From: Blastocatellales bacterium | GTDB taxonomy: Bacteria > Acidobacteriota > Blastocatellia > RBC074 | DNA: 64,000 bases | Direction of reading: 5' to 3' | Assembly (NCBI GenBank): GCA_050247435.1 | Contig: JBFWUF010000008.1 | Span: 22,704-86,703 of the forward strand | Shown: positions 23,742 to 58,121 of the stretch, piece by piece | Position numbering within the stretch: position 1 is the stretch's first letter | Layout: each line of letters begins with the position of its first letter | Notes under the pieces: generated by a model | The model's input: the letters and a program-made list of their open reading frames with translations, nothing else | Database searches by the model: none | What the model was told of the DNA's origin: nothing | Made by a program: the position numbers and the translations under genes

Positions 23742-23759
23742 GATAAACAGAGGATAAAC
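23742..23759. promoter_or_regulatory. candidate OmpR-family response-regulator box GATAAAC-N4-GATAAAC (copy 2 of 5)
   Basis: GATAAAC at 23742-23748 and at 23753-23759, phased 11 bp. Lies upstream of the phosphatase/PepSY/czcCBA operon. 31 bp nearly identical to the box at 43301-43318. Confidence 0.45.
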
Positions 23760-23795
23760 AGGAGTTGTAAATCGAATTTGATGAGCAGCCGCCAC

Positions 23796-25226
23796 TTATC
23801 CAAATTGCTTCGCGGGTAAAGTGACGCGAAATTGGCTGCCTGTAGAGTCAGAATGTTGCAAAGTCAATGACCCGCCGTGCGCTTCGGCAATCCAGCGGGC
23901 GATGGAAAGCCCTAATCCCGCGCCGCCGCCATTTCCGTGCGCCGCGCGAGAGCGGGCCTTATCGGCCCGATAGAAACGCTTGAAGATGTGCGGCTGCGCT
24001 TCGACGGGGATGCCGGCTCCGGTGTCATCCACGACAACGGAATAGATCGAATCCTCACGTATCAATCTGAGGGCGACTTGCCCGCCGGCGGGCGTGTGCT
24101 TAACAGCGTTATCGAGAAGGTTGAGCAGCATCTGGCGCAGCAAGGGTTCGTCGCCGCGGTAGGGTGATTCCACTGCCTCTTCAAATTGGACCGCGACCTG
24201 TTTGCGCGCAGCCAGAACGGCTGCAGCGCGCGCAGTCTCGGCGAGCAATTCCTCCAGGTAAAAATCGCTCGGCTCCAGCTCGCGCTGTTCGGCGTCGGCG
24301 CGGGCTAGTGTGAAAAGGTCTTCGACGATTTTGTTCAGACGGCGCGTCTGTTCGTTGATGATCCTCAGCGTCTCGTGGTACTCGCTCGCTTCACGCCGCG
24401 GAGGCTCAAGCATCACTTCCGTCGCGGTGTGAATCACGTGCAATGGCGTCCGCAACTCGTGCGAGGCGTCGGCCACAAACTGGCGCTGCTGCGCGAACGA
24501 TTCCTGCAAGCGGGCCAACAATTCATTGAACGTCGCGGCCAATTGCCCCAGTTCATCGCGCGGATTGGCGATCGGCAGCCGTTCCCCCAATCTTTCCGCG
24601 CTAATGCGCCGCGCGCTTTGCGACATCTCCGAAACCGGAGTCAGACTTTTGCGGACCAAAAACCATCCGCCGAACCCGGCCAGGATCAATGCAATAGGCG
24701 CTGCCGCCAGAAAGATGCCGCGCAATCCGGCCAGGTCTTCCGACATCGCCCTGAGCCGCTGGCTGACGACAATCACGTAGCTTTTGTTTTCGCGCACAAA
24801 TGTCACCCGCCGCGCAGCGACGCGCAGGTTTTCTTCCACACCGTTGACTTTGCCTGGAATGTTCAAAAATTGAATTTCGTCGCCCGTGGGCAGAGATCGC
24901 CCGGCAGGCAAGTCGGCGCGAAGATTATCCGGCGACGCTTTTTCTTCCAGCAACCGGCCCTGCGCGTCGAAGATCGCCGCCGCTTGCTCGGGAAAGTAAT
25001 GCTCATTGAGCGCGCTGTGGACGGCCTGCGCTTCGCTCTCGCCTTCCGCAAGTTCGTAGACCAGCAACCGCGAAATGCCTTCGACGGTCGTTCGCACTCC
25101 GGCGTCCAAGCGCCGGTGAAGCTGGCTGGCCGCCAGCAGATACACGCCCACGCTGAACGCGATCAACACGAATGCCAGCGTCCCCGTATGCCACAGCGTC
25201 AATCTTGTCCGTACTGAATCAAACAT
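23796..25226 (-). CDS. heavy-metal sensor histidine kinase (CusS/CzcS-like)
   Basis: TM1, ~140-aa periplasmic domain, TM2, HAMP, HisKA (SHELRTPL) and HATPase_c (DTGAGIP, GGAGLGLSI). Confidence 0.9.
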   Translation of the reverse strand: MFDSVRTRLTLWHTGTLAFVLIAFSVGVYLLAASQLHRRLDAGVRTTVEGISRLLVYELAEGESEAQAVHSALNEHYFPEQAAAIFDAQGRLLEEKASPDNLRADLPAGRSLPTGDEIQFLNIPGKVNGVEENLRVAARRVTFVRENKSYVIVVSQRLRAMSEDLAGLRGIFLAAAPIALILAGFGGWFLVRKSLTPVSEMSQSARRISAERLGERLPIANPRDELGQLAATFNELLARLQESFAQQRQFVADASHELRTPLHVIHTATEVMLEPPRREASEYHETLRIINEQTRRLNKIVEDLFTLARADAEQRELEPSDFYLEELLAETARAAAVLAARKQVAVQFEEAVESPYRGDEPLLRQMLLNLLDNAVKHTPAGGQVALRLIREDSIYSVVVDDTGAGIPVEAQPHIFKRFYRADKARSRAAHGNGGGAGLGLSIARWIAEAHGGSLTLQHSDSTGSQFRVTLPAKQFG

Positions 25227-25230
25227 AGAA

Positions 25231-25926
25231 TCATAACGGCAAATGATCGTTTCCCGCCGCCAGCAAATAGCCCTCGCCGCGCAGCGTGCGAATCAACTTC
25301 GGTTCCCGCCCTTCGTCAATCTTGCGCCGCAGCCGTTGAATGTAGACTTCAATCAGGTTTGAAAACGGGTCGAAGCTTTCGTCCCAGACGTGTTCGGCGA
25401 TCTCCGCGCGGGAAACGAGATGACCAGCTCGGCGCGCCAGGAACTCCAGCAGCGCATATTCTTTGGCAGTCAGCGCAATCAATTGTCCGGCGCGCTCGAC
25501 GGCATGCGAGCGAGTGTCGATCTTCAGGTCGCCAGCTTCGATCGTTTCCGGTTGTATGGATTGGCTTCGCCGCAAGAGCGCGCGCACGCGCGCCAGCAAT
25601 TCGTGAAAATCGAAGGGCTTGACCAGGTAATCGTCCGCGCCTGAATCCAGCCCGGCGATGCGGTCGCGCACGGCATCCCGCGCCGTCAGCATCAACACGG
25701 GCACACTCGCTCCAGCGGCGCGCAGTTCGCGGCAGACCTCAAGACCATCTTTCAAAGGCAGCATCACATCGAGGATGATCAGGTCGTAGTTGTTGATACT
25801 CGCCAAGTAGACGGCTTCCTCGCCTTCGGCGGCAACATCGACCGCGAACGCCCGCTCCCGCAACCCTTTCGCCAGCAAGCGCGCCGCATCAGGTTCATCT
25901 TCGACCAGCAAAACACGCATCTTCAC
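25231..25926 (-). CDS. OmpR-family response regulator (CusR/CzcR-like)
   Basis: REC domain (LLVEDEP, D in ILDVMLP, KPFD) plus a winged-helix DNA-binding domain ([22 protein letters not shown]). Confidence 0.9.
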
Positions 25927-26000
25927 TCCAACGTATCTGAAACCCGGACAGCCTTATGGAATCAGAGACAATCAACCGTCAAGCATCATATTACATCCCG

Positions 26001-26018
26001 GATAAACGTAAGATAAAC
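26001..26018. promoter_or_regulatory. candidate response-regulator box upstream of the RR/HK operon (autoregulation; copy 1 of 5)
   Basis: GATAAACGTAAGATAAAC. Two GATAAAC half-sites phased 11 bp, about 75 bp upstream of the RR start at 25926. Confidence 0.45.
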
Positions 26019-41972: not shown

Positions 41973-41974
41973 GT

Positions 41975-43207
41975 CTACCTCTTGGCGCTTTTGTGTTTGA
42001 CTTTTACGATCTGGCCATCGTCCGCGCTGATTCCAATTTCGGTGACTTCCATCTCTGAGCGAATCTTGAACTCGTAAACAAGCTTGCCGTCTTTGCGTTT
42101 CATCTCGCTGCTTTCGACTGTGCCGGGAACCGTTTTGAGCGCGATCGTTCGCGCTTCCTCCCGGGTCATTTTTATCGCGGCGGGCGAAGTCGTTTTAACG
42201 GTTGCGACGGCTGGCTGAGAATCCAGCGGCGGTTTGGCCTCTTGAAGCACTGGGGACGACGTCGGCCTGGCGACTTCCGCGGCGATGGCTGCCAATGCCA
42301 GGCTGCGCCCTCTCGTAATCGCCCCTTGATCGAGAATGTTGCCCGCCGCGTCCACCGCCCGGAAAGAGAGTTTTTCGGGCGCTATCTCAACGTACATAAA
42401 ACTGCCAACTTCGTCGTTTCCGGCGGCAAAGAACTCGCTTCGGCGGTTGAGGTCGCCGCGTCGCAACTTTCCGCTGCCCGCGCCCGCGACAAAATACTGA
42501 ACGCCTTGTTGCGGTTTTACGCGCTCGTAAACGTGATCGTGGCCGGAGAAGACCGCAGCCACTCCGAAGCGCACGAAGAGCGGCTCAAGCTGCCTGCGCA
42601 GATTCAGGTCCGAGCCGTGCGTCCTTCCTGACGAGTAAAGCGGGTGATGAAAATAAACGATTTTCCAACTCGCTTTTGACGCGACCAGCGCATCCGTCAG
42701 CCATTTCAATTGCGCGCTGTCGAACGCCGTAGAATCGAGCGCGAAGAACTCAACCAGACCGTCGCCCTTGGTGAATGAATAGTAGGCTCGCCCGCCCATG
42801 TTGAACTGAGAATAGTTGATCTGCGCTTCGCGTCCTCTCCGGACGTCGTGATTGCCGAGCGAGGCGTAAAAGTGAACGCCGCTTCGCAACAACTCCGCAT
42901 ACGGTTTTTCAAACTTCGCCGGGAGGTCAGCCGAATTTCCGTCGGGATAAATGTTGTCGCCCAGTGTTAGCGCCGTGTCGAAATGGTATTCCATTTGATA
43001 AACGGCCATTCGTCTGGCTAGGGCGTATTGATCGCTGTCGCCGGTTCCCATATCGCCGAACGCAATGAATCGCACAACAGGCTCCTGCGTTCGATCAACC
43101 TTCCGAACATTATTGACGAGGCTGCCGCCGTTGCTCTGTGCGAAAGCGTATGCCGTGAATGCTAAAAGCAGGGCGATAGAGTTGAGGATCCCGATTCTCC
43201 TGTTCAT
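41975..43207 (-). CDS. secreted calcineurin-like metallophosphoesterase with C-terminal PepSY domain
   Basis: Signal peptide. Motifs GDMG, GDNIY and GNHD. The C-terminal ~70 aa (EARTIALKTVPGTVESSEMKRKDGKLVYEFKI...) are PepSY-like. Confidence 0.8.
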   Translation of the reverse strand: MNRRIGILNSIALLLAFTAYAFAQSNGGSLVNNVRKVDRTQEPVVRFIAFGDMGTGDSDQYALARRMAVYQMEYHFDTALTLGDNIYPDGNSADLPAKFEKPYAELLRSGVHFYASLGNHDVRRGREAQINYSQFNMGGRAYYSFTKGDGLVEFFALDSTAFDSAQLKWLTDALVASKASWKIVYFHHPLYSSGRTHGSDLNLRRQLEPLFVRFGVAAVFSGHDHVYERVKPQQGVQYFVAGAGSGKLRRGDLNRRSEFFAAGNDEVGSFMYVEIAPEKLSFRAVDAAGNILDQGAITRGRSLALAAIAAEVARPTSSPVLQEAKPPLDSQPAVATVKTTSPAAIKMTREEARTIALKTVPGTVESSEMKRKDGKLVYEFKIRSEMEVTEIGISADDGQIVKVKHKSAKR

Positions 43208-43300
43208 TTCTCCTCCATGAATTCTGGTTGACTTAGGTTCGCGCCAGGGGCAATGCGGCGCGAGAGATCACTGACTGAGACGAGAGAGTACCAAGGAGTA

Positions 43301-43318
43301 GATAAACAGAGGATAAAC
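43301..43318. promoter_or_regulatory. candidate response-regulator box (copy 3 of 5) upstream of the metallophosphoesterase gene
   Basis: GATAAACAGAGGATAAAC, with the flanks GGAG...AGGAGTTG shared with the box at 23742. About 94 bp upstream of the ATG at 43207. Confidence 0.45.
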
Positions 43319-46400: not shown

Positions 46401-46618
46401 ATTGCCGATTCAATTGGCAGCGTAACCAGCGCTTCGACCTCTTCAGGCGCGAGGCCGTGCGACTCGGTGAGAATCGTCACGGTCGGCGCAGTCAGGTCTG
46501 GAAAGACATCTACCGGCGAGCGTAATGCGACGATGCCGCCGTAAATCAGCAGCGCGACGGCGGCCACGATCACGAGCAATCTGTTATTGAGCGACCACTG
46601 GATGATTTTGTTCAACAT
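43493..46618 (-). CDS. czcA: CusA/CzcA-family heavy-metal efflux RND permease (paralog 2)
   Basis: 1041 aa with HME-RND architecture. N-terminus LRSPVDVFPDLTAPTVTILTESHG. Confidence 0.95.
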   Translation of the reverse strand: MLNKIIQWSLNNRLLVIVAAVALLIYGGIVALRSPVDVFPDLTAPTVTILTESHGLAPEEVEALVTLPIESAMNGTAGVFRVRSNSAIGISIVFVEFSFGTDIYRARQLVTEKLQQVRLPTGVTPPVLGPISSTMGEIMLISMTSKQTSPMELRSLADWVVRPRLLGVAGVSQVMIIGGQKKQYQVLVDPAKLADYRLTLDQVTKAVSASNANAAGGFLEQPNEEFLIRGRGRVYSPDDLADSVITVRDGAPILVKNVAEVKTGAALKRGDGSFNGQPAVVATIQKQPNANTLEVSEQIETTLANLKTSLPPDVMIDTKAFQQADFIKRAIGNVNRALVEGGVLVTVVLFLFLMNFRTTFISLTAIPLSLITAILAMSYFGISINTMTLGGLAIAIGELVDDAIVDVENVFRRLKLNAHLPAPEPVARVIFRASSEIRNSIVFATLIIVLVFLPLFSLSGFEGRMFAPLAFAYIISVAASLVVALTVTPVLCFYLLRRAEVLHDEKDSWLVTWLKRHYARLLDWTLRHPYRIIGASAMMLLIAVSLFPLMGREFLPPFNEGTLNINANLPPGTSLQESNRIGNIIEGVLRQVPEVVTTTRRTGRAELDEHAAGVNTSELEVVTKEADRKHSIVMEEVRQKLAQIPGVEAEVGQPISHRIDHLLSGTRAQIAIKLFGPDLATLRNKAGEIRDAMATVPGVVDLLVEPQVGVPQVQINLNRQAAAAVALSAADLAQTVEIAFNGEAVSQVLEEQRTYDVMVRFNDSARQSVEAISRTLLDTPSGAKVPVAQVAEVRTDQGPNTINRENVQRRIIVQANVAGRDLGSVIADVRAAITGRVALPQGYFVQYGGQFEAQEKAARQITLLSIVAVGGIFLLLYMALKQVRPALLVMANLPLSLIGGVVMVFLSGGTLSIASLVGFITLFGIATRNGIMLISHYQHLMEEEGLSFREAIVQGSMERLSPILMTALVTGIGLVPLALGAGQPGREIQQPMAVVILGGIVTSTLLNMIVIPALYLKYGEAAVLATTDKYGDGGELASTGD

Positions 46619-46623
46619 AGATC

Positions 46624-47928
46624 TCAGGTCTCGTGCGTGTGCGCGCCAGCATCCGCCGGGCGCAGTTCCTGCAGCTTGATCTGATACGCGCCCTGCGTGA
46701 CGACGCGCTCACCCGGCTTCAGCCCCGCCAGTACGGCCACCTTGTCGCCGTACTCATCGCCCAACTGCACCTCGCGCCGCTGGAATTCTTCGCCCGACAG
46801 CAACACATAGACAATCTTTTTGCCTTCGTGTTCGAGTACTGCTTCCTTTGGAATGGTGACGGCCTCGACGCTCTCCCCGGCGTCGAGCCGCACATCGGCC
46901 TGCATCCCAATGCGCAGCGCTCGCGCCTGATTCGGAACTTCAAAGACGACTGTCGCGGCGCGCGTCTGCTCGTTGACGATTGACCCGATGTTGATAACCA
47001 CGCCTTTGAACTCAGTCCCGGAATAAGCGGGCGTTGTGAAAACTGCGCGCGTCCGGTTGCCGAGCCGCGACAGATCGCGCTCGAAGATCGGGGCTTCCAC
47101 CCAGACAGTTTCCAGGTTGGCGATCTCAATGATTGCTTCGCCGGGCGCAACCTGTTCGCCGATATTTTTATTCACCTTCGTCACGATGCCGCTGATCGGC
47201 GCTCGCGCCAGGTAAGTGCCGCCGCCGTTTCCCACGTTGATTTTGACAGGCTCAACTTTGTCGGCGGCGCCAAGCGCCTTGCGCCGCGCCGTTGCCGCAG
47301 CGAAATTGGCCTGCGCTGATTTCAGTTCGGCTTCGGCGACATCAAGTTGCTGCTTCGGCAGAATCCCTTGCTCAAACAGTTTGGCGGTGCGTTCGGCTTC
47401 ACGGCGGGCCAGATCCAATCGCGCACGGGTAGACTCGATCTCTCCATCAGCGGTGCGCCGTTCGGCGTCAAGACGCGCCGCGTCAAGAGCGACCTGCGCA
47501 TTCTGCGATTCTGCCTGCGCCGTCGCGGCTCGTACCTGAGCCTGCTCGGCGGAAGTCGAGGTCTGTTGCAGCGTGGCAATTATCTGCCCGGCTGAAACGT
47601 TCTGGCCGATGCGGGGCAGTTGCCCGCGCAAGATGATCCCGCCGACCGGCGGCGCGACAAGAGCCTGATGATTGGCCGCCGCAATGACGCGGCCTGTGGC
47701 AGTGATCTGTCGCGCAAGCGGGCGCGATTCGGCCTGCGCCAGCTTCATTCTGATGAGCCATTGCTGCTCCATCAAAAATTTCACTGTGCCAGTCGCCTCC
47801 TGAGCGGCAGGCGCGGCAGCTATTTCTCCCTGTGAAGGCCGACGTAAGAATAAGAAGCCTGCTGCGGTGGCAATGGCGAGAAGCACAACAACTGCGAAGA
47901 TGGCGGTGGGGCGAATGTTTTTAGTCAT
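46624..47928 (-). CDS. czcB: RND efflux periplasmic adaptor (CzcB-like, paralog 2)
   Basis: 434 aa membrane-fusion protein with a TM anchor and a coiled-coil hairpin. Directly upstream of czcA. Confidence 0.85.
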   Translation of the reverse strand: MTKNIRPTAIFAVVVLLAIATAAGFLFLRRPSQGEIAAAPAAQEATGTVKFLMEQQWLIRMKLAQAESRPLARQITATGRVIAAANHQALVAPPVGGIILRGQLPRIGQNVSAGQIIATLQQTSTSAEQAQVRAATAQAESQNAQVALDAARLDAERRTADGEIESTRARLDLARREAERTAKLFEQGILPKQQLDVAEAELKSAQANFAAATARRKALGAADKVEPVKINVGNGGGTYLARAPISGIVTKVNKNIGEQVAPGEAIIEIANLETVWVEAPIFERDLSRLGNRTRAVFTTPAYSGTEFKGVVINIGSIVNEQTRAATVVFEVPNQARALRIGMQADVRLDAGESVEAVTIPKEAVLEHEGKKIVYVLLSGEEFQRREVQLGDEYGDKVAVLAGLKPGERVVTQGAYQIKLQELRPADAGAHTHET

Positions 47929-47933
47929 TGAAC

Positions 47934-48416
47934 CTACTCCACTTTGAAATCGGCGAGCGGCAGACGCTCATCAAGCCTGGTGTTTTTGATGTGGAACTCG
48001 ATGTCGTAATCGCCGCGTTGGGGGATCATCAAGTCGGCGACGTAAATGCCTGTCACCTTGCCCACGCGCGCTTTTGTCTGCACGGCTTGCGCGCCGCCTT
48101 TGGCGCGAACCGTGAGCGTCACCTCGGCCTGCTCAACCGGCGACCCGTCGCGGAGGTCGGTCAAGTGGATGCGGAACTGGCTCGGCTTGGCCGCTTTCAA
48201 CGGCTCATACTCAAAGAAGTTCTCGACCCGCTCGGTGAACTCCGTGCGCGCGACGGCCTCCTCAGCTTCTTCTTTCGGGCTTCTGGTTCCAGCCGTTTGC
48301 CACGCGCCGCATGCTGCCAGACTGATTGAGACTGCCAGCAGCAGGAGCGCCCCCGCCCTCTGACGACCGGCGGTAGTTTTTGCAAGGGAAATGAAAGACG
48401 AACGGGATGGCATCAA
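47934..48416 (-). CDS. lipoprotein, possible Ig-like periplasmic metal-binding accessory protein
   Basis: Lipobox LAAC. Mature domain ~120 aa, predicted beta-rich. Lies between the M56 protease gene and czcB. Family not recognised. Confidence 0.5.
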   Translation of the reverse strand: MMPSRSSFISLAKTTAGRQRAGALLLLAVSISLAACGAWQTAGTRSPKEEAEEAVARTEFTERVENFFEYEPLKAAKPSQFRIHLTDLRDGSPVEQAEVTLTVRAKGGAQAVQTKARVGKVTGIYVADLMIPQRGDYDIEFHIKNTRLDERLPLADFKVE

Positions 48417-48430
48417 TTGGAATCACCTTT

Positions 48431-49501
48431 CTATTTGAGAACGTGGATCAGAGCCTCGGTCGCTTCGTGAACGGCAAGCGGCGCGGCAAGGGAAACGACA
48501 AGCAGTGTGAGTACGGAGAGCGTGGCAATAAAGACGGCTTTGTAACCATACGGGCGTGAGAGCGCAGCCAAGCGCGTAGGAGCCGGCAGCGCGTCACTCA
48601 AATCCAGCAGCCGCTGAACGCGCCGCTCCAAGTCCAGCGCACTGACGGGGAAGAACCCTGAAGCAATTGCCGGAGCAGGCATAATTGTCCTGCGCTTCAG
48701 CTTCACCAGCGCCTCGGCGAGGTCGAGTGGGACTGCCGTCCGCGCCGCAGCCATTTCGTCACACAGCAACTCCACCTGTTCCGCCCGGTATTTTAGAATC
48801 AGGCGCGTGAGCGGGAAGGCCAGCGAGGCGTAACCGAACAGCGACAACACGAGCTTCGCCAGATTATCGCGTCGCGAATCATGCGCCGCCTCGTGAGCAA
48901 TGACCCCGCGCAGTTCATCCGGCGTCAGCATATTGAGCAGCCCCGACGACAGCACCAGCCGTGAGCGGTGAAAACCCCACACGAACGAAAAAGGGTGGTC
49001 GCTCATTACCAGCCCGATCCGCAACTTGCTATGCGCGGAGGCGCTTTTAATTAGCGCCAGTTGCTCCGGCAACGGCGGCTGTGCCTTAACGTCCAGCCGT
49101 TCAATCAACGCGTTCAACCGCAAGTAGCCGCGCACGCTAAGCCAAGCCACTGAAATTGCTGAGAGCAACACCAGCGACACTGTCACATAAGCGAGCGCCG
49201 GTTCCAGCTTCGCCGTCAGTTCTCCGAGCAGGTGAAGTTGATGGAGCGGCTGCGGGTGCGCGGCGTCAAAGGCTGCTTCGCCCAGCCACCATTCCGGCAG
49301 GAAGGCCGCCGACGTCAGCCAGGCCGCAACCAGCGGCGGCAGGACGACCGCCGCCGAATAAATCCGAGTCAGCGTTTCAGGCTGCCATTGCCGCCAGCCG
49401 CATTCAGTCGCCGCGCGTACGGCGATGGCGACGGCAAAGCCGCATAGAGCCAGCAGCGTGCTGAAGAGAATAAAATTTTCGATGACGGCGATGAATCTCA
49501 C
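48431..49501 (-). CDS. M56-family (BlaR1/MecR1-like) membrane zinc metalloprotease lacking the C-terminal penicillin-binding sensor domain
   Basis: 356 aa. Four TM helices. HExxH at VIAHEAAHD. No PBP/transpeptidase-like sensor domain. Overlaps the blaI-like stop. Confidence 0.8.
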   Translation of the reverse strand: MRFIAVIENFILFSTLLALCGFAVAIAVRAATECGWRQWQPETLTRIYSAAVVLPPLVAAWLTSAAFLPEWWLGEAAFDAAHPQPLHQLHLLGELTAKLEPALAYVTVSLVLLSAISVAWLSVRGYLRLNALIERLDVKAQPPLPEQLALIKSASAHSKLRIGLVMSDHPFSFVWGFHRSRLVLSSGLLNMLTPDELRGVIAHEAAHDSRRDNLAKLVLSLFGYASLAFPLTRLILKYRAEQVELLCDEMAAARTAVPLDLAEALVKLKRRTIMPAPAIASGFFPVSALDLERRVQRLLDLSDALPAPTRLAALSRPYGYKAVFIATLSVLTLLVVSLAAPLAVHEATEALIHVLK

Positions 49502-49947
49502 TTGCCCTGTTTCCTCCGGCCTTGTGCCTCGCGTTTGGCGCGTATCATCTCTTCGAGTTGGTCGAGTTTGCCAGCATCCGTGCCCACGAGGTCAACGAAA
49601 GCCGAAATCGCCGGCGCATGAAACTGGCCAATCAACGCGCCCAGCACCTCCTCGACCATCACGCGTTCGAACTCCTCGTGGGAGTAACGCGGCGAATAAA
49701 CGAAGGCCTTGCCCTGCTTCTCGCGCAGCAGAAAGCCCTTGCGGTGCAGGCGATCGAGCGTTGTCAGCACCGTCGTATGAGCGATCTCGCGGCGCTTTCT
49801 CAGCTTTTCTTCGACCTCGTTAACCGTCCGCGGCGATTCTCGCCAGAGCAGTTCCATTACGGCAGTCTCCAATTCACCGAGGACATGGCTCGCGCCGCGT
49901 CTGCCGGGTTTGAATCCGCGTAAAGTGATTTTCGGTCGCATAGACAT
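49498..49947 (-). CDS. BlaI/MecI/CopY-family transcriptional repressor
   Basis: Winged helix (LGELETAVMELLWRESPRTVNEVEEKL...HTTVLTTLDRLHRKGFL) and a C-terminal dimerization domain. ATG at 49947 (MSMRPK). Confidence 0.85.
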   Translation of the reverse strand: MSMRPKITLRGFKPGRRGASHVLGELETAVMELLWRESPRTVNEVEEKLRKRREIAHTTVLTTLDRLHRKGFLLREKQGKAFVYSPRYSHEEFERVMVEEVLGALIGQFHAPAISAFVDLVGTDAGKLDQLEEMIRAKREAQGRRKQGK

Positions 49948-50095
49948 ATCAGTATGCTGGCTACAACTCTTGATCTTTGTAAGACTACTGCTGATAGTTA
50001 CATGGCGGAAAGAGGGAGTCAATGGCTCATTCTCCTTGCATTCGCGGTTCGCTGAGATGGCACAGAGCAACGTGAAATGGGCTGTGCCATCTCTT

Positions 50096-53000
50096 TCAAA
50101 AGATAGCTGCTTCCACGCGCGATTCCCGCTCCGAATCCAGTGGAGACTTTCTTGTTAACTCCGCCATTGAAGGCGGCTTTCCGAACTTCAAATAAAGCGC
50201 AGGCAGCACGATCATATTGAGCAGCGTTGAAGTGAGCAGCCCGCCCAGAATCACCACGGCCATCGGCTGCTCCAACTCGCGTCCGGGTTTGCCCGCGCTC
50301 AAGGCCAGCGGCAACAAACCAAGTCCCGCCGTGAGCGCCGTCATCAGGATCGGCGAGAGCCGCTCCATCGCGCCGCGCGCCACCAGATCGCGCCCGAACT
50401 TCATGCCCTCTTCCGCCATCAGGTGGTTGTAATGCGTAACGAGCATAATCCCGTTGCGCGTGGCGATGCCGAAAAGCGTCACAAAGCCGACGAGTGAAGC
50501 GACGGATGTTTCGCCCTCACTCGCAATCAACACCGCCGCCACGCCGCCAATCAGCGCCAGCGGCAGGTTCGCCATCACAAGCAGCGATTGCCTGAGCGAG
50601 CGGAACGCGAGGAAAAGCAGCAGGAAGATGCCCACGACCGCAGCGGCGCTGAGCAGCAAGATTTGGCGAAACGCTTTCGACTGCGCTTCGTACTGTCCGC
50701 CGTAAACGACGTAGTAGCCCGCTGGCAATTGCACTTTTTCACTGACGCGACGCTGGATGTCGCCGACCACTTCGGTCAGGCTGCGCTCGCCCGTGACGTT
50801 GCACGTGACGACGATGCGGCGCTGGGCGTTCTCGCGGTTGATCGTGTTTGGGCCGTTGACGATCTCGATATCGGCGAGCGCGCCGAGCGGGACTTTCGCT
50901 CCGACAGGCGTGTCCACGAGCGTCTCGCGCATCGTTCGCAGATCGCTCGCCGCGTTCGGTTCGTAGCGGACGAGGATGGCGAACGATTTTTGCCGCTCGA
51001 ACACGTCGGAGACTTTCACGCCGTAAAAAGCCGCGCGCATCATCTCGGCCAAGCCAGCGCTGTTGAGGCCGTATTGCGCCATCGCGTCGCGCTTGAAGCT
51101 GACATGAACTTTCGGCACACCGGTCTGTTGTTCGACGCTGAGGTCGGTGATGCCCGGCGCATCGGCCATCGCGCGTTGAATCTCTACGGCTTTTTCCGCC
51201 AGCGCATCCAGGTCGGGGCCGAAGAGCTTGACGACAATCGTGGCCGTCGTGCCCGACAAAACTTCTTCGATTCGCTCGGAGATGAATTGATTGATGCCGA
51301 AAGCGAAGCCTTTGAAGTCGGCCAGCTTGCGACGCACGTCCTCGATGACTTCATCGCGCGTGCGGTCGCTCTCTTTCAAAGCGACGTGCAACTCGGTGAG
51401 ATTCGGGCCGAAGGTGTCTTCGCTAAGTTCGGCGCGCCCTGTCTGCTGCGTGACTTTGACGACTTCGGGGATTTCAGCCAATCGTTGTTGGGCGAGCGCG
51501 CCAACCCGCATGGACTCTTCCAGCGAAAGACCGGGCACGCCGCTCATGCGTATGATCAGATTGCCTTCGTTGAATTCCGGCAGGAACTCTCCGCCGAGAA
51601 ACGGTGTGGCGGCGAGTGTGAGCGCAAGCAATGCAGCCGAGACGGCGATGATCGCGCGCGGATACCTGAGCGCCGGATTGATGATTCGCGCGTAAGCTCG
51701 CTTGAGCAATCGCACCGTCAACGTCTCCTCCGACCTCACTCTTCCGTTCATCGCCAATCGCGGCAGCAGCGCGTAACAGAGCGCGGGCGTGATTGTGAGC
51801 GCGACGACGAGCGAAGCGAGGATCGAGATGATGTAAGCAAGCCCGAGCGGGGCGAAGATGCGCCCGGCCAGGCCGGAAAGTGAAAAGATCGGCAGGAAGA
51901 CCAGCGCGACAATGGCCGTCGCGTAGACCACTGAACTGCGCACTTCGCTCGACGCGTGATAGATCACCGAGAGGACTGGCTCCGGATGTTCCTTCAAGCG
52001 GTTTTCGCACAGCCGCCGCCAGACGTTTTCGACATCAATAATCGCGTCGTCCACAACTTCGCCAATCGCTATCGCCAATCCGCCGAGCGTCATCGTGTTG
52101 ATCGTCGCGCCGAACCAGCGCAGGATGATGATCGCCACCAACAACGAGAGCGGAATCGCCGTCAGGCTGATCAACCCCGCGCGCCAATTGAAGAGAAACA
52201 ACGCAAGCACGAGCACCACCAGCAACCCGCCTTGCAGGATCGCCCAGTTGATGTTGGAGATTGAACGTTCAATGAAATCGGCCTGGCGAAAAATGCCGGG
52301 GTCCAGCACGACATCGCGGGGCAGCGCGGCCCTCAACTCGCCGAGCGCCGCTTCGACCGCGCGCGTCGTCTGAAGCGTATTGGCCCAGGGCTGTTTGAGT
52401 ACGATCACAATCACACTCGGTTGGCCTGCCGTCGAGGAGTCGCCAACTTTGTATTCGGCGCCGAACTGTACGCGCGCGACCTGCCCGATCTTCACCGGCA
52501 GATTGTTTTTGACCGCGACGACGGCATTCTCCAGATCGCTCAAGGCGCGCACGCGGCCTTCGCCCTGAATGACCATCGTCTGCCCGGCGGTGTCGAGGAA
52601 GCCTGCCGCCGCATTTTGATTCGCCGACCGCGCGGCGTTCATCACCTCGCCCAGCGTCACACCAAAATCCTTCAACTTCGCCGGGTCAACGATGACCTGA
52701 TACTGCCTGACCTCGCCGCCGAAGACGATGATCTGCGAGACGCCCGGCACGGCCAGCAAGCGCGGGCGGATCGTCCAATCGGCGAGCGTGCGCAAATCCA
52801 TCAACGAAGTTTCTTTGGCCGTCAGGCTGACGCGCAGCAGCGTGCCGACTGGCGGGCTGATGGGCGTCATCTGCGGCTCGTTCGCGCCTTCGGGCAAACG
52901 CGCGCGCGCGATCTGCAACTTCTCGCCGACCAGTTGCCGCGCGCGAAAGATGTCCGTGCCTTCCTCAAAAGTGCAGGTGACGACCGCGAGGCCGGCGGCT

Positions 53001-53257
53001 GAAGACGAACGAATCACTTCCAGATTGCTCGTGCCGTTGAGCGCCGTCTCAAGCGGCAGCGCGATGAGTTGCTCGGTCTCTTCGGCGGAGAAGCCGGGCG
53101 CTTCGGCCTGAATCACGACTTGCGGCGGCGCAAAATCCGGGAAGACATCGAGCGGCGCATTCATTGCCGTCCGCATGCCGAAGACTATCAATAGCGCGGC
53201 GAGCACGATGACGACCAGCCGGTTGCGCAACGACCAGAGGATGATCCGGTTGAGCAT
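50096..53257 (-). CDS. czcA: CusA/CzcA-family heavy-metal efflux RND permease (paralog 3)
   Basis: 1053 aa. N-terminus MNAPLDVFPDFAPPQVVIQAEAPG. Confidence 0.95.
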   Translation of the reverse strand: MLNRIILWSLRNRLVVIVLAALLIVFGMRTAMNAPLDVFPDFAPPQVVIQAEAPGFSAEETEQLIALPLETALNGTSNLEVIRSSSAAGLAVVTCTFEEGTDIFRARQLVGEKLQIARARLPEGANEPQMTPISPPVGTLLRVSLTAKETSLMDLRTLADWTIRPRLLAVPGVSQIIVFGGEVRQYQVIVDPAKLKDFGVTLGEVMNAARSANQNAAAGFLDTAGQTMVIQGEGRVRALSDLENAVVAVKNNLPVKIGQVARVQFGAEYKVGDSSTAGQPSVIVIVLKQPWANTLQTTRAVEAALGELRAALPRDVVLDPGIFRQADFIERSISNINWAILQGGLLVVLVLALFLFNWRAGLISLTAIPLSLLVAIIILRWFGATINTMTLGGLAIAIGEVVDDAIIDVENVWRRLCENRLKEHPEPVLSVIYHASSEVRSSVVYATAIVALVFLPIFSLSGLAGRIFAPLGLAYIISILASLVVALTITPALCYALLPRLAMNGRVRSEETLTVRLLKRAYARIINPALRYPRAIIAVSAALLALTLAATPFLGGEFLPEFNEGNLIIRMSGVPGLSLEESMRVGALAQQRLAEIPEVVKVTQQTGRAELSEDTFGPNLTELHVALKESDRTRDEVIEDVRRKLADFKGFAFGINQFISERIEEVLSGTTATIVVKLFGPDLDALAEKAVEIQRAMADAPGITDLSVEQQTGVPKVHVSFKRDAMAQYGLNSAGLAEMMRAAFYGVKVSDVFERQKSFAILVRYEPNAASDLRTMRETLVDTPVGAKVPLGALADIEIVNGPNTINRENAQRRIVVTCNVTGERSLTEVVGDIQRRVSEKVQLPAGYYVVYGGQYEAQSKAFRQILLLSAAAVVGIFLLLFLAFRSLRQSLLVMANLPLALIGGVAAVLIASEGETSVASLVGFVTLFGIATRNGIMLVTHYNHLMAEEGMKFGRDLVARGAMERLSPILMTALTAGLGLLPLALSAGKPGRELEQPMAVVILGGLLTSTLLNMIVLPALYLKFGKPPSMAELTRKSPLDSERESRVEAAIF

Positions 53258-54564
53258 CAGCGTTTCTCCTCTTTCTCGTCATCTTCGCTTTCAATCTGGC
53301 CTTTCAACGTCTCGCTGCGCAACGAAGCCGCGCCGACCGACACCACTTTCTCACCTGCTTTGAGTCCGCTGCTGATGACGACACTGTCGCCGTTGCGCTC
53401 GCCCAGGGTGACGCGGCTACGCTGGTAAACGCCCGGCTGCACCTCGACGAAGACAATGGACTGGCTCTCTTCGGTAAGCGCGGCGGAAGCCGGGATGAGC
53501 AGCGCTTGTATGCGTGCGCCGCCCGGAATGCGCGCTTCGGCTGTCATCCCGATTTTGAGCGCGCCGTTAGGATTGCCGGCTGCGAAGATCACCGTCGCGT
53601 TGCGATTGGCCGGGTCAATCACGCCGTTGATAGTGACGAGTTGGCCGGTGTATGCGCGGTCGGGATCGGCGGGCGTCGTAAATGTCACGCGCGCGGCGCG
53701 GCGCACCGCCCGAAGCTGGCTTTCGTGAACGGCGACCTCAATCCAGACGCGGCTCAAATCAACAATCGTCAACAGACTTTTCGCCGGGTCAATTTGCTGT
53801 CCGGCGGTAAGTTCGGCGGCGACGACCATGCCGGAAATCGGCGCTCGCAGTGGGACGCGCGGCGGCGTGCTGGTTTGTTGTTGCTGGGCTGCTTCGGATT
53901 GCGCTCTGGCCGCTTCGTACTGTTCTTTGGCGCGCCTGGCTCCATCGAGGCTGGCCTGCGACTGCCGCAACTTGAACTCGGCGGTCTGAAGTTGTTTGAG
54001 CGAAATCGCGCCGCCGTCGTAGAGCCGCTTGGCGCGCTCCACTTCAATCTGTTGAAACGCGACCTCGTGCCGTGCCTGCTCAATCGTGGCCTGAAGCTGC
54101 GCCGCCGTTGCGCTCAATTGCGCCGCCGTCCCGCCGAACTGCGCCGCCGCCGCCCTCAATTGCGCCTGCTCGGCGGCGGTGAGCATCTGTTCGACTTCGG
54201 CGATGACCGCGCCCTGTTTGACGAAGCTGCCGATGCGCGGCAAGCGAGCCGGATCGGCGACCAAGCGCCCGGCGAAGGGCGAAAAGACTTGCGCTTCGCC
54301 GCCCGCGCGCGCCGTCACCCGCCCAATGGCCGTGATGGTCGAAACAATTTCCTGCTCGGTCGCAGCGGCGGTTTGAATGCCATTGGCTTTGATCTGCTCC
54401 GGCGTCAAACGAATCGCGCCATCCGGCGCATCGTCTGTCTTTGTCTCAGCCTCGCGCGCCGGTTCGGGTTTGCGGTCTGTTTTTGAACCGCAGCCCGCGC
54501 ATAACAAGCTCGAGCCGCAAAGCAGCGCGCTCAACAACACAATGATGAAATTGCAATTTGGCAT
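53257..54564 (-). CDS. czcB: RND efflux periplasmic adaptor (CzcB-like, paralog 3)
   Basis: 435 aa. Lipoprotein-like N-terminus (LLCAGCGSK). Coiled-coil plus beta-barrel domains. Confidence 0.85.
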   Translation of the reverse strand: MPNCNFIIVLLSALLCGSSLLCAGCGSKTDRKPEPAREAETKTDDAPDGAIRLTPEQIKANGIQTAAATEQEIVSTITAIGRVTARAGGEAQVFSPFAGRLVADPARLPRIGSFVKQGAVIAEVEQMLTAAEQAQLRAAAAQFGGTAAQLSATAAQLQATIEQARHEVAFQQIEVERAKRLYDGGAISLKQLQTAEFKLRQSQASLDGARRAKEQYEAARAQSEAAQQQQTSTPPRVPLRAPISGMVVAAELTAGQQIDPAKSLLTIVDLSRVWIEVAVHESQLRAVRRAARVTFTTPADPDRAYTGQLVTINGVIDPANRNATVIFAAGNPNGALKIGMTAEARIPGGARIQALLIPASAALTEESQSIVFVEVQPGVYQRSRVTLGERNGDSVVISSGLKAGEKVVSVGAASLRSETLKGQIESEDDEKEEKR

Positions 54565-54621
54565 ATTTCCCGGCGTGGCCCCGCAGGATCGCTCCTTGAG
54601 CGTGCAATCTAACGAGAGTTG

Positions 54622-54639
54622 AATAAACAGCGGATTAAT
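54622..54639. promoter_or_regulatory. degenerate response-regulator box (copy 4 of 5) upstream of czcB paralog 3
   Basis: AATAAACAGCGGATTAAT. 14 of 18 positions match GATAAACAGAGGATAAAC, with the same 11-bp phasing. About 58 bp upstream of the czcB start at 54564. Confidence 0.35.
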
Positions 54640-54663: not shown

Positions 54664-56109
54664 TCAGCTTGCGATGGGAGCAGGCAGCGTAGCGACAAAC
54701 GTACTGCCGCATTGGTCGGAGTGGCGCAGCTCAAGGCATCCGTGATGCGCCTCCGCAATCCAGCGCGCGATGGAAAGGCCGAGTCCCGCGCCTCCGTTCG
54801 CGCAGGTTTCGGTTCGCGTGCGTGATTTATCCGCGCGGTAGAAACGCTCAAAAATGCGCGACTGGGCTTCCGGCGGAATGCCCGCGCCGGTGTCGGTTAC
54901 GGTGATTTCGTGCGTGGAATCGTGTTGCGCCAGACTGACCCGGACCGCCCCGCCTGCCGGCGTGTATTTGACGGCATTATCGAGCAGGTTTAAGAGCATT
55001 TGCCGCAGCAAGCCTTCGTCGCCGCGATACGGCGTTTCGCCTGCCGGCGCGACCTCGACTTTCACGCCTTTTCGTTCTCCCAGTATTTGCGCGGCCCGCG
55101 CGGTCTCCGCCACCAATTCATCGAGGTAAAGGTTTCTGCTTTGCGGCTTGCGTTGTCCGGCGTCGGCGCGCGCGAGCGTGAACATGTCCTCGACGATGCG
55201 CGTCAGATGCCGCGTCTGTTGATTGATCATCGCCAGCGCCTCACGGTATTCGCCCGCTTCGCACTGCTCCTGATCCATCGTCACTTCGCCTGCCGTCCGC
55301 ATCACATAAAGCGGCGTGCGCAACTCGTGCGAAGCATCGGCCATAAATTGTCGCTGTTGTTCAAAGGCGCGCTGTTGTTGTGCAAAAGTGTCGTTGAGGC
55401 GCGCGAGCAGTTCGTTGAAAGTCGTGGCGAGTTGACCGAGTTCATCGCGCGGGTTGATGACCGGCAAACGCTGGTCGAGGTTTTCGGCGCTGATCCGCCG
55501 GGCGCGTTCCGACATCGCTACCACCGGCGCCAGGCTCTTGCGCGCCAGAAACCAACCGATTGCCGCGACTCCTAGCAGGGCAAAAGGAACGGCCAGGACG
55601 AGGATGCCGCCGAGCAATTCGAGGTCGTCCGACACATCTTCATACGGCTGGCTGATGACCAGGAAGATGGCGCTCTGCGGTCCGGTTTTGATGCGCTCCA
55701 CCGCCACCCGCAAACCATCATCAACACCGGTTTGCGCTTCCGGCAGCGAGTAATATTGCCGCCCCTCCCGGTCGAGCGCCGGGATGCCGGCGGGCAGCGT
55801 GGCGTGAACCTCGCCGAGCGTCTTTTCTTTCAGCAAGCCGCCGTTGTGATCGAAGAAGGCCACCGCCTGGCGCGGGAAATAGGATTTGCGCAGCGCGCTC
55901 CCCGCCGCATACTCATCCGTCTCGCCCTCCTCTTTTTCATGCAAGATGAGCCGCACAACGCCTTCGCTGGCGACGCGCAATCCTGCATCCAACCGGCTTT
56001 GCAGCTTGCGCGCCATCAGCGCGTAGACGCCCATGCTGAAAACGATCAGGACCAGCGCCAGCAAACCGACGTACCACAACGTCAATTTTGTGCGGACGGA
56101 GTCAATCAT
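54664..56109 (-). CDS. heavy-metal sensor histidine kinase (paralog 2)
   Basis: Same architecture as 23796-25226. N-terminus MIDSVRTKLTLW (copy 1 has MFDSVRTRLTLW). ATG at 56109 overlaps the RR stop (ATGATTGA). Confidence 0.9.
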   Translation of the reverse strand: MIDSVRTKLTLWYVGLLALVLIVFSMGVYALMARKLQSRLDAGLRVASEGVVRLILHEKEEGETDEYAAGSALRKSYFPRQAVAFFDHNGGLLKEKTLGEVHATLPAGIPALDREGRQYYSLPEAQTGVDDGLRVAVERIKTGPQSAIFLVISQPYEDVSDDLELLGGILVLAVPFALLGVAAIGWFLARKSLAPVVAMSERARRISAENLDQRLPVINPRDELGQLATTFNELLARLNDTFAQQQRAFEQQRQFMADASHELRTPLYVMRTAGEVTMDQEQCEAGEYREALAMINQQTRHLTRIVEDMFTLARADAGQRKPQSRNLYLDELVAETARAAQILGERKGVKVEVAPAGETPYRGDEGLLRQMLLNLLDNAVKYTPAGGAVRVSLAQHDSTHEITVTDTGAGIPPEAQSRIFERFYRADKSRTRTETCANGGAGLGLSIARWIAEAHHGCLELRHSDQCGSTFVATLPAPIAS

Positions 56110-56791
56110 TGGTCTCCTCGCCTTCGGCGGCCAGCACATAGCCCGCGCCACGCCGCGTGCGAATCAGTTTCAGCGCGTAACCTTCATCGAGTTTGCGCCG
56201 CAACCGTTGGACGTAGACTTCGATTGAATTGGTGAATGGATCGAACGATTCATTCCAGACGTGCTCGGCGATGTCGGCGCGGCTCACCACTTCACCGGCG
56301 CGCCGGGCCAGATACTCCAGCAACGCGTACTCTTTGGCCGTCAATTCGATCTGTCGATCTCCACGCCTCACCTGCTGCGCGCGCGTGTCGATCACCAGAT
56401 CGGCGACGGTCATCGTCTCAGGCCGCAGCGCCTGCCCGCGCCGCAGCAACGCCCGCACGCGCGCCAGCAGTTCATGAAAGTCGAACGGTTTAACCAGGTA
56501 ATCATCCGCGCCGAGGTCGAGTCCGGCGATGCGATCCTGCACCGCGTCGCGCGCCGTCAGCATGAGAATCGGCGTGGTTGCTCCTGCCGCTCGCAATTCG
56601 CGGCAGACCTCAAAACCATCCTTCAGCGGCAGCAGCACATCGAGAATGACGAGGTCATAGTCGTTGACGCTCGCTAGATAAAGAGCCTCCTCGCCGTCGG
56701 CGGCGACATCCACGGCGTAAGTCCGTTGCCGTAGCCCTTTCGCCAGCATCCGCGCCGCGTTGGGTTCGTCCTCAACCAGTAAAATGCGCAT
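56102..56791 (-). CDS. OmpR-family response regulator (paralog 2)
   Basis: About 80% identical to the RR at 25231-25926 by eye, including an identical recognition-helix region (IEVY.QRLRRK). Confidence 0.9.
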   Translation of the reverse strand: MRILLVEDEPNAARMLAKGLRQRTYAVDVAADGEEALYLASVNDYDLVILDVLLPLKDGFEVCRELRAAGATTPILMLTARDAVQDRIAGLDLGADDYLVKPFDFHELLARVRALLRRGQALRPETMTVADLVIDTRAQQVRRGDRQIELTAKEYALLEYLARRAGEVVSRADIAEHVWNESFDPFTNSIEVYVQRLRRKLDEGYALKLIRTRRGAGYVLAAEGEETND

Positions 56792-56864
56792 CTTGATTCT
56801 CCGGAATCGGCAATATCCCCATCAACCGTTCGGCGCACAGCCTTAGCCGATTCCATCAATCGCG

Positions 56865-58028
56865 CTAAATGCCGTTGATCATATCGCCGGTCACCGCATT
56901 GTAGAGGAGCGTCACACCGTCAGCCAGAACGACTTCGTACACGGTTTCCGTATGACCTTTTATTTGCTTTAGCTCCATTTCCATTACGGTTTGGCTGCGA
57001 CTCGTCTCAGCCTTGCGGATGATCTCCTGGAAGGTCAGCAGCCTGCTTTTCTCCAGCCCGAGCGGAGAGAGGACTGCGAGTTTGTTCGGAGCCTTTGGCT
57101 TCGTTCCCAGGAGCTTGCCTGAGGTAGCCTCAATTTCATACTCGTTGCCCGAAGAGAAGGTCACATCCCAGGTCGTGACCGAACGGGCCGGATCCCATTC
57201 GAGATCAACTTTGAGCACCTCGCCGCTACCGCCTTCGGCCTGTGCGCGCCTGATCGCTTCCACCACGGTGATATATCCCGCCTCGGCTGAAAGCCCTGCG
57301 GTTGTGCGAGCCTGCGGTGTCGAGGCTTTGGCAATCGGCGCTTCCTTCACCTCGTCGTCGTCTTTCTTGGCCTTCGCCAGCTTATCCTCTTTCTTCTTTT
57401 TCTCCTTCGATGAGGACTTGCCCCGATCTTTGTCGTCCGAGGCCGAACGCGCGCTCGAATCTCCTCGATCCGCTCGCGAGCCATAGACGTAAGCGTAAAG
57501 CTCCGGGTGTTCTTCCGGCGTGCCGAAGCCATAGGATTGCTGCTCAGCCCAGGCGCGATCTTTTGCCCAGCCCTGAACGCGCATCCGGTAAAGCGCGGCA
57601 ATGCTGCCGGCGCGATGCTTGCCAGCCGAGCAATGCACGTAGACTGGCTCTTTAGCGTTTTGGATGATCGAGAGAATTGCGCTGACGGCCTTGTCATCGG
57701 GAGTGTCGTGGCCGGTCATCGGGAAATTGAAATACTTGATCCCGTTGCGCTGGCTGACTGCGGGTTCATCGGCGTTCGGGTTATCCCTCAGATCAATGAT
57801 CGTGCGTACGCCCATTGCCGCAAGGCTTTCAATGCCGGTTGGTGTTATGGCCCCGCCGCGAAAGTAGCGCTCCGTCACCCGCCCGAAATTCTTCACGCCT
57901 TCGACCTGCTCGCGCCCGCTCTGCGCGAATGTTGCTGGTGAGGAGAGGACGACGAATGTCAGGAGTGAAAGAATGATCTGCGGCAGCCGCTGGCCGGCGG
58001 TTTTACTCCGGTTGATTAACGCGCTCAT
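56865..58028 (-). CDS. secreted Cys-based phosphatase (CX5R) fused to two C-terminal PepSY-type domains
   Basis: Signal peptide. Catalytic loop [10 protein letters not shown], paralogous to 22987-23598. Lys-rich linker. Two PepSY-like repeats at the C-terminus. Confidence 0.75.
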
Positions 58029-58103
58029 AAGTTCTCCTAATATGTTGCCAACTTTACTTGATGATCTCCTGTAAGGAAGCGGCGTGAATCATACTCTGGG
58101 AAA

Positions 58104-58121
58104 GATAAAAAGAAGATTAAT
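58104..58121. promoter_or_regulatory. degenerate response-regulator box (copy 5 of 5) upstream of the phosphatase-RR-HK operon, paralog 2
   Basis: GATAAAAAGAAGATTAAT. 14 of 18 match to the consensus, with 11-bp phasing. About 76 bp upstream of the ATG at 58028 and 3 bp from the IS left inverted repeat. Confidence 0.3.

Follow-up and report, generated by a model that had tools for sequence, protein, structure and literature searches.

The direct repeat described here, which stands in front of five minus-strand genes or operons in a 64-kb window from the genome of a Blastocatellales bacterium (Acidobacteriota; contig JBFWUF010000008.1), has its closest described counterparts among the operators of OmpR/PhoB-family response regulators. 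The window is the whole stretch of DNA that was analyzed, and it encodes two paralogous two-component systems, referred to below as RR1-HK1 and RR2-HK2 after their response regulators and histidine kinases. Mycobacterium tuberculosis PhoP binds a direct repeat of two 7-bp half-sites with a 4-bp spacer (7-4-7) as a tandem dimer (PMC4832192), and both its box and the Escherichia coli Pho box share this arrangement, with its 11-bp period, with the repeat of the window (PMC4832192, PMC4415409). The DNA-binding domain of M. tuberculosis PhoP aligns end to end with the regulator described here, and among solved structures it is the next closest to the RR1 domain after PcoR. However, the half-site is RTTYATC, rather than CTGTCAT or TCACAGC. 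Nor are the regulators orthologues of PhoB or PhoP (TIGR02154, 201 bits, cut-off 296). A large periplasmic domain sets the kinase apart, and resistance-nodulation-division (RND) efflux pumps are among the predicted targets.

In Salmonella, PhoP promoters of architecture I carry (T/G)GTTTA-N5-(T/G)GTTTA in direct orientation, about 12 nt from the -10 element and over the -35 position, including the promoter of the autoregulated phoP gene (PMC3335776). The boxes of the window likewise present GTTTA every 11 bp in direct orientation, with the second GTTTA ending 12 nt from the -10 hexamer, and they also cover the -35 position, the regulator's own promoter included. In sequence and geometry, the box is closest to this PhoP box. 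The regulator is nevertheless not an orthologue of enterobacterial PhoP (NF008078, 151 bits against a cut-off of 336) and the regulon content is different; the likeness is most likely convergent.

With respect to protein family, the systems resemble the heavy-metal systems CzcRS, CusRS, CopRS and AgrRS. The best-scoring NCBIfam families are TIGR01387 for RR1 (266.4 bits, cut-off 279.2) and TIGR01386 for HK1 (279.3 bits, cut-off 292.55), so that both proteins fall just under the curated cut-offs. PcoR provides the closest solved DNA-binding domain, and adjacent operons for CusA/CzcA-type RND pumps are the main predicted targets. AgrR is reported to combine positive autoregulation with class II placement, as predicted here, on its operator, the inverted repeat ATKACANNNNTGTMAT (PMC7380067), while the operator of Pseudomonas aeruginosa CzcR is GAAAC-N6-GTAAT (PMC13209446). 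The direct repeat RTTYATC-N4-RTTYATC, in contrast, is neither an AgrR/CopR-like nor a CzcR operator.

PepSY genes beside two-component systems form a widespread module, as in Vibrio cholerae DbfQRS, P. aeruginosa BqsPQRS and Microbacterium UipRS-UipA (PMC12714742). In Caulobacter, UrpRS controls a phytase, and UzcRS, with an 18-bp box, controls secreted proteins and efflux pumps (PMC8963506). Here too, secreted PepSY proteins are encoded beside an OmpR-type system and are likely to be under its control. Instead of a small upstream protein, however, they are fusions to phosphoesterases or a tandem 171-aa PepSY-like protein encoded past the kinase, and the systems show no orthology to DbfQRS, BqsPQRS, UipRS, UrpRS or UzcRS. 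Our literature searches, on GTTTATC with response regulators and on acidobacterial two-component and RND regulons, returned no earlier description of this acidobacterial box.

The five boxes and their promoters

On the gene (minus) strand, the five sites have the consensus RTTHATC-N4-RTTTATY. We consider it likely, from sequence comparison, that they are operators of the adjacent regulators RR1 and RR2, set in promoters with an extended -10 element and no -35 element. All five copies named by a sequence-only reading of the window are present, and three of them are exact repeats of GATAAAC-N4-GATAAAC on the plus strand (23742-23759, 26001-26018 and 43301-43318), where dinucleotide shuffles predict 0.00. 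With both strands counted, the 64 kb contain the half-site GTTTATC only 13 times, and the three 11-bp-phased pairs account for six of these occurrences. Sites 4 and 5 carry three mismatches each; since the window holds seven matches at that stringency against 1.9 expected, neither is significant on its sequence alone. All five sites are intergenic and point, in the same orientation, at a minus-strand gene, as that reading had also proposed, with gaps to the listed starts of 74, 113, 93, 57 and 75 nt for sites 1-5; alternative starts give 80 nt to an ATG for site 1 and 143 nt to a second ATG for site 2.

The sites were scored against relatives. We surveyed 112 loci from Acidobacteriota genomes and soil metagenomes. 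HK1, searched against species-representative genomes, returned 19 orthologous loci with 43-78% kinase identity, and HK2, searched against metagenomes, returned 80 soil contigs with 31-60% identity. All 19 HK1-orthologue loci belong to Acidobacteriota metagenome-assembled genomes (MAGs) annotated as Blastocatellia/Pyrinomonadaceae, three of which are labelled 'Heliomicrobium', which places the window in an uncultured member of this group; an exact-sequence look-up of the HK1 protein gave no match on record. Two matrices were built with the window sites excluded, matrix 1 (22 nt) from 17 sites of the orthologous loci, with 30 Markov simulations as its null, and matrix 2 from 26 metagenome sites of the RTTAATC type. 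Matrix 2 was also combined with a -10 rule, TAnnnT exactly 10 nt downstream of the box. Sites 1, 2, 3 and 5 all exceed the null maximum of matrix 1, 16.8 bits, and site 5 is contained in neither matrix. The sites, with their predicted -10 hexamers and transcription starts, are as follows.

Site 1, 26001..26018, minus strand: GTTTATC-TTAC-GTTTATC, exact; box of the RR1-HK1 promoter; 26.3 bits (matrix 1)
Site 1 predicted -10, 25985..25990, minus strand: TATGAT, 10 nt past the proximal half-site; predicted start near 25978
Site 2, 23742..23759, minus strand: GTTTATC-CTCT-GTTTATC, exact; 36 nt past the HK1 stop; 32.7 bits (matrix 1)
Site 2 predicted -10, 23726..23731, minus strand: TACAAT; predicted start near 23719
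Site 3, 43301..43318, minus strand: GTTTATC-CTCT-GTTTATC, exact; box of the metallophosphoesterase-PepSY promoter; 26.5 bits (matrix 1)
Site 3 predicted -10, 43285..43290, minus strand: TACTCT; predicted start near 43278
Site 4, 54622..54639, minus strand: ATTAATC-CGCT-GTTTATT; 24 nt past the HK2 stop; weak box of the promoter of membrane-fusion/RND pair 3; 3.8 bits (matrix 1), 5.6 bits (matrix 2)
Site 4 predicted -10, 54606..54611, minus strand: TAGATT, exactly 10 nt downstream; predicted start near 54599
Site 5, 58104..58121, minus strand: ATTAATC-TTCT-TTTTATC; box of the PTP-PepSY/RR2/HK2 promoter; 25.1 bits (matrix 1), 27.0 bits (matrix 2)
Site 5 predicted -10, 58088..58093, minus strand: TATGAT; predicted start near 58081

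Site 4 loses its score with matrix 2 at the last half-site base and in the flanks. It matches the 26 metagenome loci in position, strand and the ATTAATC...GTTTAT form. A threshold of at least 5.6 bits with the metagenome matrix, together with the -10 rule, returns exactly the five sites in the entire window and nothing in 40 Markov simulations. With the -10 rule left aside, chance would place about 7e-4 matches in the 99 nt that separate HK2 from the following gene. On the strength of its position, form and promoter geometry, we take site 4 to be probable but weak. The repeat itself is real, with four strong sites and a fifth identified by those same three features. Other matrix matches in the window were dropped for scores that do not rise above the null range, for a coding position or for want of a -10 hexamer: 4014(-) (12.4 bits, inside a gene), 35106(+) (9.2 bits), 6069(+) (10.3 bits) and 34835(+).

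The promoter geometry emerged from 34 sites aligned with their flanks, with positions counted from the first base of the box. T29, A30 and T34 are present in 30, 32 and 33 of the 34 sites, respectively, T26 in 27 and G27 in 19. This pattern is an extended -10 element, TGnTAnnnT, with its hexamer exactly 10 nt past the proximal half-site in about 90% of the sites. The -10 positions lie outside the search matrix and therefore provide independent evidence that the boxes are promoter elements. Upstream of the box, the 34 aligned sites show no conservation; the conserved part amounts to about 20 bp plus the -10 element, in flanks that are wholly divergent across loci with 40-78% kinase identity. 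The spacer (TTCT in the closest clade) and a T(T/C) after each half-site are also conserved, which fits the wing contacts described for M. tuberculosis PhoP (PMC4832192). The box spans about -40 to -23, over the -35 position. A simple consensus scan found no sigma-70 -35/-10 consensus pair at any of the five sites; we did not read this empty scan as evidence against a promoter, but as a missing -35 element. Judged from sequence, the layout is that of a class II activator-dependent promoter, similar to those with a Pho box or a PhoP box. The 7-4-7 repeat, the adjacent winged-helix regulators and the extended -10 element fixed 10 nt downstream all agree with the earlier proposal of an OmpR/PhoB-type box.

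Related loci and the regulator helix

In the related loci, the 7-4-7 arrangement is found again on the gene strand in two syntenic positions, one ahead of the regulator gene and one directly past the kinase stop. At both, the genome loci carry a box within two mismatches of the consensus. The regulator-upstream box lies 50-82 nt before the start in 10 Blastocatellia-type loci (L001-L009, L013). Site 2 is orthologous to the box at 11471 of L001, and the downstream sequence ctcttcgtTACAAT is common to both. Matrix 1 also finds further sites in promoter position outside its training set; one match, at 9427 of L009, is a false positive within the regulator coding sequence.

Strong sites, defined by at least 19 bits, were counted in 1.08 Mb of the window and related loci. 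Besides the five sites of the window, 57 others show the 7-bp half-sites with their 4-bp spacer. Of the 62 strong sites, 60 share the strand of the two-component genes; TAnnnT follows 9-11 nt downstream in 55; and 49 fall outside open reading frames (ORFs) of 150 aa or more, even though ORFs of this size make up 83% of the DNA. Over-extended ORFs account, as artefacts, for several of the 13 sites counted as 'inside'. The greedy ORF caller mis-called some genes (for example, a 470-aa tie at 21038-23526), so that the coding and intergenic counts are conservative; the genes of the window were taken from Pfam support. Strong matches were absent from simulated sequence. A motif equally dense in random or coding DNA, and not conserved upstream of orthologous genes, had been named beforehand as the outcome that would speak against a regulatory box; as far as sequence can tell, neither was the case.

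The box occurs almost exclusively with a single type of recognition helix. For this comparison, loci with at least 150 nt past the kinase were taken and the box was sought within 350 nt, against a background density of the pattern of 0.014 per 350 nt. Regulators with the family helix F-(S/T)-(N/K)-x-I-E-V-(Y/F) have a box past the kinase in 32 of 44 loci, and a box with a proper -10 element in 29. With other helices, the corresponding numbers are one and zero of 37 loci. Within the family, the box varies by clade: the helix SKVIEVFIQRLRRKV goes with RTTTACC-N4-GTTTACC, helices ending in (I/V)NR(L/V)RRK go with RTTAATC-N4-GTTTATC, and a third helix variant, of 14 residues, goes with RTTTATC-N4-RTT(T/C)ATC. 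This covariation fits a co-evolution of regulator and operator. We did not adopt a simple rule by which Gln or Asn in the helix would go with T or A as the fourth base of the distal half-site, as RR2, which has Gln, and locus L052 break it. The recognition helices of RR1 and RR2 (TNSIEVYVQRLRRKL) had been described as identical; they differ at four of 15 residues.

Genes behind the boxes

The genes of the two systems and of their putative targets are listed below.

25231..25926, minus strand: RR1, OmpR/PhoB-family regulator (Pfam Response_reg and Trans_reg_C); likely start at ATG 25920
23796..25226, minus strand: HK1, sensor histidine kinase with periplasmic domain, HAMP, HisKA and HATPase (Pfam)
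16744..23628, minus strand: target operon 1, behind site 2; intergenic gaps or overlaps of at most 24 nt
22987..23628, minus strand: PTP/DSP-like phosphatase (Pfam), operon 1
22447..22962, minus strand: 171-aa PepSY-like secreted protein, operon 1, two genes past HK1
21038..22450, minus strand: outer-membrane factor, operon 1
19828..21051, minus strand: membrane-fusion protein, operon 1
16744..19821, minus strand: RND pump, operon 1; TIGR00914, 602 bits, below the cut-off of 701
41975..43207, minus strand: metallophosphoesterase-PepSY fusion (Pfam Metallophos and PepSY) with signal peptide; single-gene target of site 3
54664..58028, minus strand: system 2 operon PTP-PepSY/RR2/HK2, behind site 5
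56865..58028, minus strand: PTP/DSP-PepSY fusion (Pfam), directly upstream of RR2
56102..56791, minus strand: RR2 (Pfam Response_reg and Trans_reg_C)
54664..56151, minus strand: HK2, histidine kinase (Pfam)
53257..54564, minus strand: membrane-fusion protein of pair 3, target of site 4 (50096..54564)
50096..53257, minus strand: CusA/CzcA-family RND pump of pair 3; TIGR00914, 792 bits, above the cut-off of 701

Between the two systems, the regulators share 77% identity and the kinases 57%. Transcription from site 4 may read on into 43493-50070. All four accessory proteins of the window begin with a signal-peptide-like sequence in translation. The gene identities given by the sequence-only reading agree with Pfam, except that the PepSY call for the 171-aa protein is weak: it has no Pfam match, and NCBIfam PepSY_MTB gives 21 bits against a cut-off of 60.

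The metal specificity of the pumps is doubtful. Divalent-cation CzcA proteins carry a DFG...DGA...VEN motif. The three CusA/CzcA-like pumps of the window (16744-19821, 43493-46618 and 50096-53257) share the TM4 signature A(L/I)GE(V/L)VDDAI(I/V)DVEN. This motif, together with the score of the site 2 pump below the CusA/CzcA cut-off, makes the 'Czc' label tentative; the label and a response to metals would both follow from family resemblance only.

Blastocatellia-type loci have the order regulator, kinase, box, (phosphoesterase), PepSY-like protein, outer-membrane factor, membrane-fusion protein and RND pump, and the order of operon 1 behind the box is kept in L001-L008 and L013. Loci of the distant soil clade have (small PepSY protein), outer-membrane factor, membrane-fusion protein and RND pump behind the box, with small PepSY proteins encoded there in L043 and L064. 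The comparison of gene orders indicates that the conserved core is a two-component system predicted to drive a tripartite RND pump. PepSY proteins are frequent passengers, and the phosphoesterases are an addition in the Blastocatellia group. An orthologue of the metallophosphoesterase is the first gene behind the kinase-proximal box in L001, L003-L006 and L013. More widely (L001, L003-L006, L009, L013 and L015-L018), this first-gene slot is occupied by unrelated phosphoesterase families according to lineage, namely metallophosphoesterase, PTP/DSP-like, type I phosphodiesterase/nucleotide pyrophosphatase and DUF3616, suggesting that selection acts on the activity, not on the gene.

Two further gene groups of the window deserve mention. 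Between two membrane-fusion/RND pairs, at 47934-50070 on the minus strand, lie genes for a BlaI/CopY-family repressor (49498-50070), a BlaR1-like M56/M48 peptidase (48431-49501) and a YtkA-like lipoprotein (47934-48416), a second regulatory layer in the same 16-kb minus-strand array. The halves of an MprF-like aminoacyl-phosphatidylglycerol synthase, the transmembrane flippase region and the C-terminal transferase domain, are encoded by separate genes 8 kb apart (27350-28366 and 36406-38085). VirJ-like alpha/beta hydrolase genes adjoin the first, and PP2C/SpoIIE phosphatases and a hybrid kinase with a sigma-54 activator are encoded between the two.

Proposed mechanism, alternative readings and further observations

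From the arrangement of the boxes, we infer binding, activation and the nature of the signal as follows. HK1 or HK2 would respond to a signal in the periplasm, most likely a metal cation or stress on the envelope, and would phosphorylate its own regulator. As a head-to-tail dimer, the regulator would bind the two 7-bp half-sites, with their 11-bp period, at about -40 to -23 and recruit RNA polymerase in class II fashion, touching sigma region 4. Positive autoregulation would operate at RR1-HK1 through site 1 and at PTP-PepSY/RR2/HK2 through site 5. The operon past each kinase would be induced as well, the phosphatase/PepSY-like/RND operon 1 through site 2 and membrane-fusion/RND pair 3 through site 4, while site 3 would induce the unlinked metallophosphoesterase-PepSY gene.

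Several points weigh against this reading. The window was the sole stretch of the genome available, which places the full regulon and a genome-wide background beyond reach. Among the 44 family-helix loci, 12 have no recognizable box past the kinase, and the autoregulatory box is missing from most of the more distant soil loci. The covariation of helix and box is confounded with phylogeny, since few clades are involved, and the binder may be another OmpR-family regulator encoded elsewhere. Site 4 has low matrix scores. Sites 2 and 3, moreover, may be copies of one duplicated promoter instead of independent occurrences, as they have the same 18-bp core and a common flank, so that the independent observations in the window may number fewer than five. 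The identical core had been noted by the sequence-only reading, but the common flank is shorter than it stated, only the 8 bp of AGGAGTTG, displaced by a 2-bp indel. Finally, the searches turned up no close orthologue of system 2 (RR2/HK2), with best identities of 60% in genomes and at most 60% in metagenomes; sites 4 and 5 therefore have no footprint in true orthologues, and their form was matched in a more distant clade only.

The sequence-only reading had united all five sites in a single regulon. The box would link the two-component systems, phosphoesterases, PepSY proteins and RND pumps, but these may form two overlapping regulons. A partial insulation, in which RR1 would act on GTTTATC-N4-GTTTATC (sites 1-3) and RR2 on ATTAATC-N4-KTTTATY (sites 4 and 5) after the duplication and divergence of the system, would refine the operator reading without contradicting it, and we regard it as a possibility to be held tentatively. 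The four differences in 15 helix residues argue for it; one of them is a Leu-to-Ser change at the position aligned to Val213 in M. tuberculosis PhoP, a residue that contacts a base and a ribose in the complex (PMC4832192). Both sites flanking RR2-HK2 have ATTAATC as the distal half, while the other three have GTTTATC. In 26 loci of another regulator clade, which includes regulators with TNT or SNS at the same helix positions, the distal half-site is invariably RTTAATC. Nevertheless, the proximal half-site is of one type in all five sites, and RR2 retains the Gln typical of the GTTTATC clade. Furthermore, one regulator of L052 has a box of the GTTTATG type on its upstream side and one of the GTTAATC type on its downstream side, indicating that a single protein tolerates either T or A at position 4.

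The remaining alternatives dispute activation, or the regulator itself. Some OmpR-family regulators repress from positions overlapping the -35 element, and the box covers the place where that element is expected, so that the regulator could occlude the -35 region and block RNA polymerase until the signal arrives. We consider such repression very unlikely: there is no -35-like hexamer to occlude, the same geometry recurs at the regulator's own promoter and at the effector operons, and a fixed orientation with an exact 10-nt spacing to an extended -10 element is a hallmark of class II activation (PMC3335776). The boxes could also belong to another factor or be non-regulatory DNA, such as promoter remnants, ends of mobile elements or elements of an alternative sigma factor. 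The common flank of sites 2 and 3 looks duplication-like, an insertion sequence (IS) ends 2 nt from site 5, and L001 holds a duplicated copy of the regulator promoter. An origin of this kind is nonetheless most improbable, as conservation is confined to the 20 bp and the -10 element while the flanks diverge, the box is tied to one helix type, and the inverted repeat of the IS begins outside the box; to our knowledge, moreover, the sequence and spacing of the box are unlike those of extracytoplasmic function (ECF)-type -35/-10 pairs.

The operator reading, if correct, describes a conceptually standard two-component switch of the ordinary bacterial kind, in a phylum that has received little study. 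The Acidobacteriota rank with the most abundant bacteria of soil and are mostly uncultured, and we know of almost nothing that has been established about their transcriptional regulation. The rule RTTYATC-N4-RTTYATC, 10 nt upstream of an extended -10 element, would be testable for a widespread acidobacterial two-component family and useful for annotating regulons in MAGs, reading soil metatranscriptomes and building reporters. It would also suggest that regulators nearest to the heavy-metal systems can use a PhoP-box-like direct repeat, rather than sites of the 'copper-box' type. From their linkage, efflux, PepSY proteins and secreted phosphoesterases may take part in one joint response. A broader proposal, which we consider unlikely, is a conserved regulon of Acidobacteriota for envelope or metal stress that co-induces an RND pump, secreted PepSY proteins and secreted phosphoesterases, with inducible phosphate release and a splitting box specificity. 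If it were true, the refilled phosphoesterase slot could release phosphate in the periplasm or outside the cell, precipitating or buffering toxic metal, uranyl or lanthanide ions alongside efflux, and the duplicated system, splitting GTTTATC from ATTAATC in the distal half, would offer a snapshot of regulon insulation after duplication.

Some local features of the promoters may be added. The IS beside site 5 occupies 58124-59479. Its terminal inverted repeats of 22 nt (58124-58145 and 59458-59479) enclose a DDE transposase gene (58194-59453(+)), and we saw no clear duplication of the target site. Its left end lies 2 nt upstream of the distal half-site, so that the site 5 promoter has lost its native upstream DNA while the box is intact, and we rejected the IS as the creator of the site, since a gap of 2 nt separates its inverted repeat from the box. 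About 140 nt upstream of site 3, directly past the stop of the RND gene at 43493-46618, a hairpin with a 10-bp stem, CTTCACAGTT-N14-AACTGTGAAG (about 43455-43490, minus strand), may be a terminator that parts the RND operon from the site 3 promoter. In the closest relative, L001, a second and nearly identical regulator promoter (box GTTTATCCTGTATTTATC plus TATAAT) stands at 4259-4491 before a regulator fragment of just 40 residues, the remnant of a duplicated two-component system. L009 has two nearly identical boxes (GGTTCATGTTCCGTTCATGTG) at 11469 and 13857, past the kinase and past a kinase fragment, with identical downstream sequence, which indicates a local duplication; the box at 11469 is predicted to drive a type I phosphodiesterase gene. 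Finally, L001 carries three tandem half-sites with 11-bp spacing at 19940-19970 (ATTTACA, ATTTATC and ATTTATC), before a -10-like TAAACT. This triple site may serve more than one dimer, and the next ORF, more than 400 nt away, encodes a transposase-like helix-turn-helix protein.

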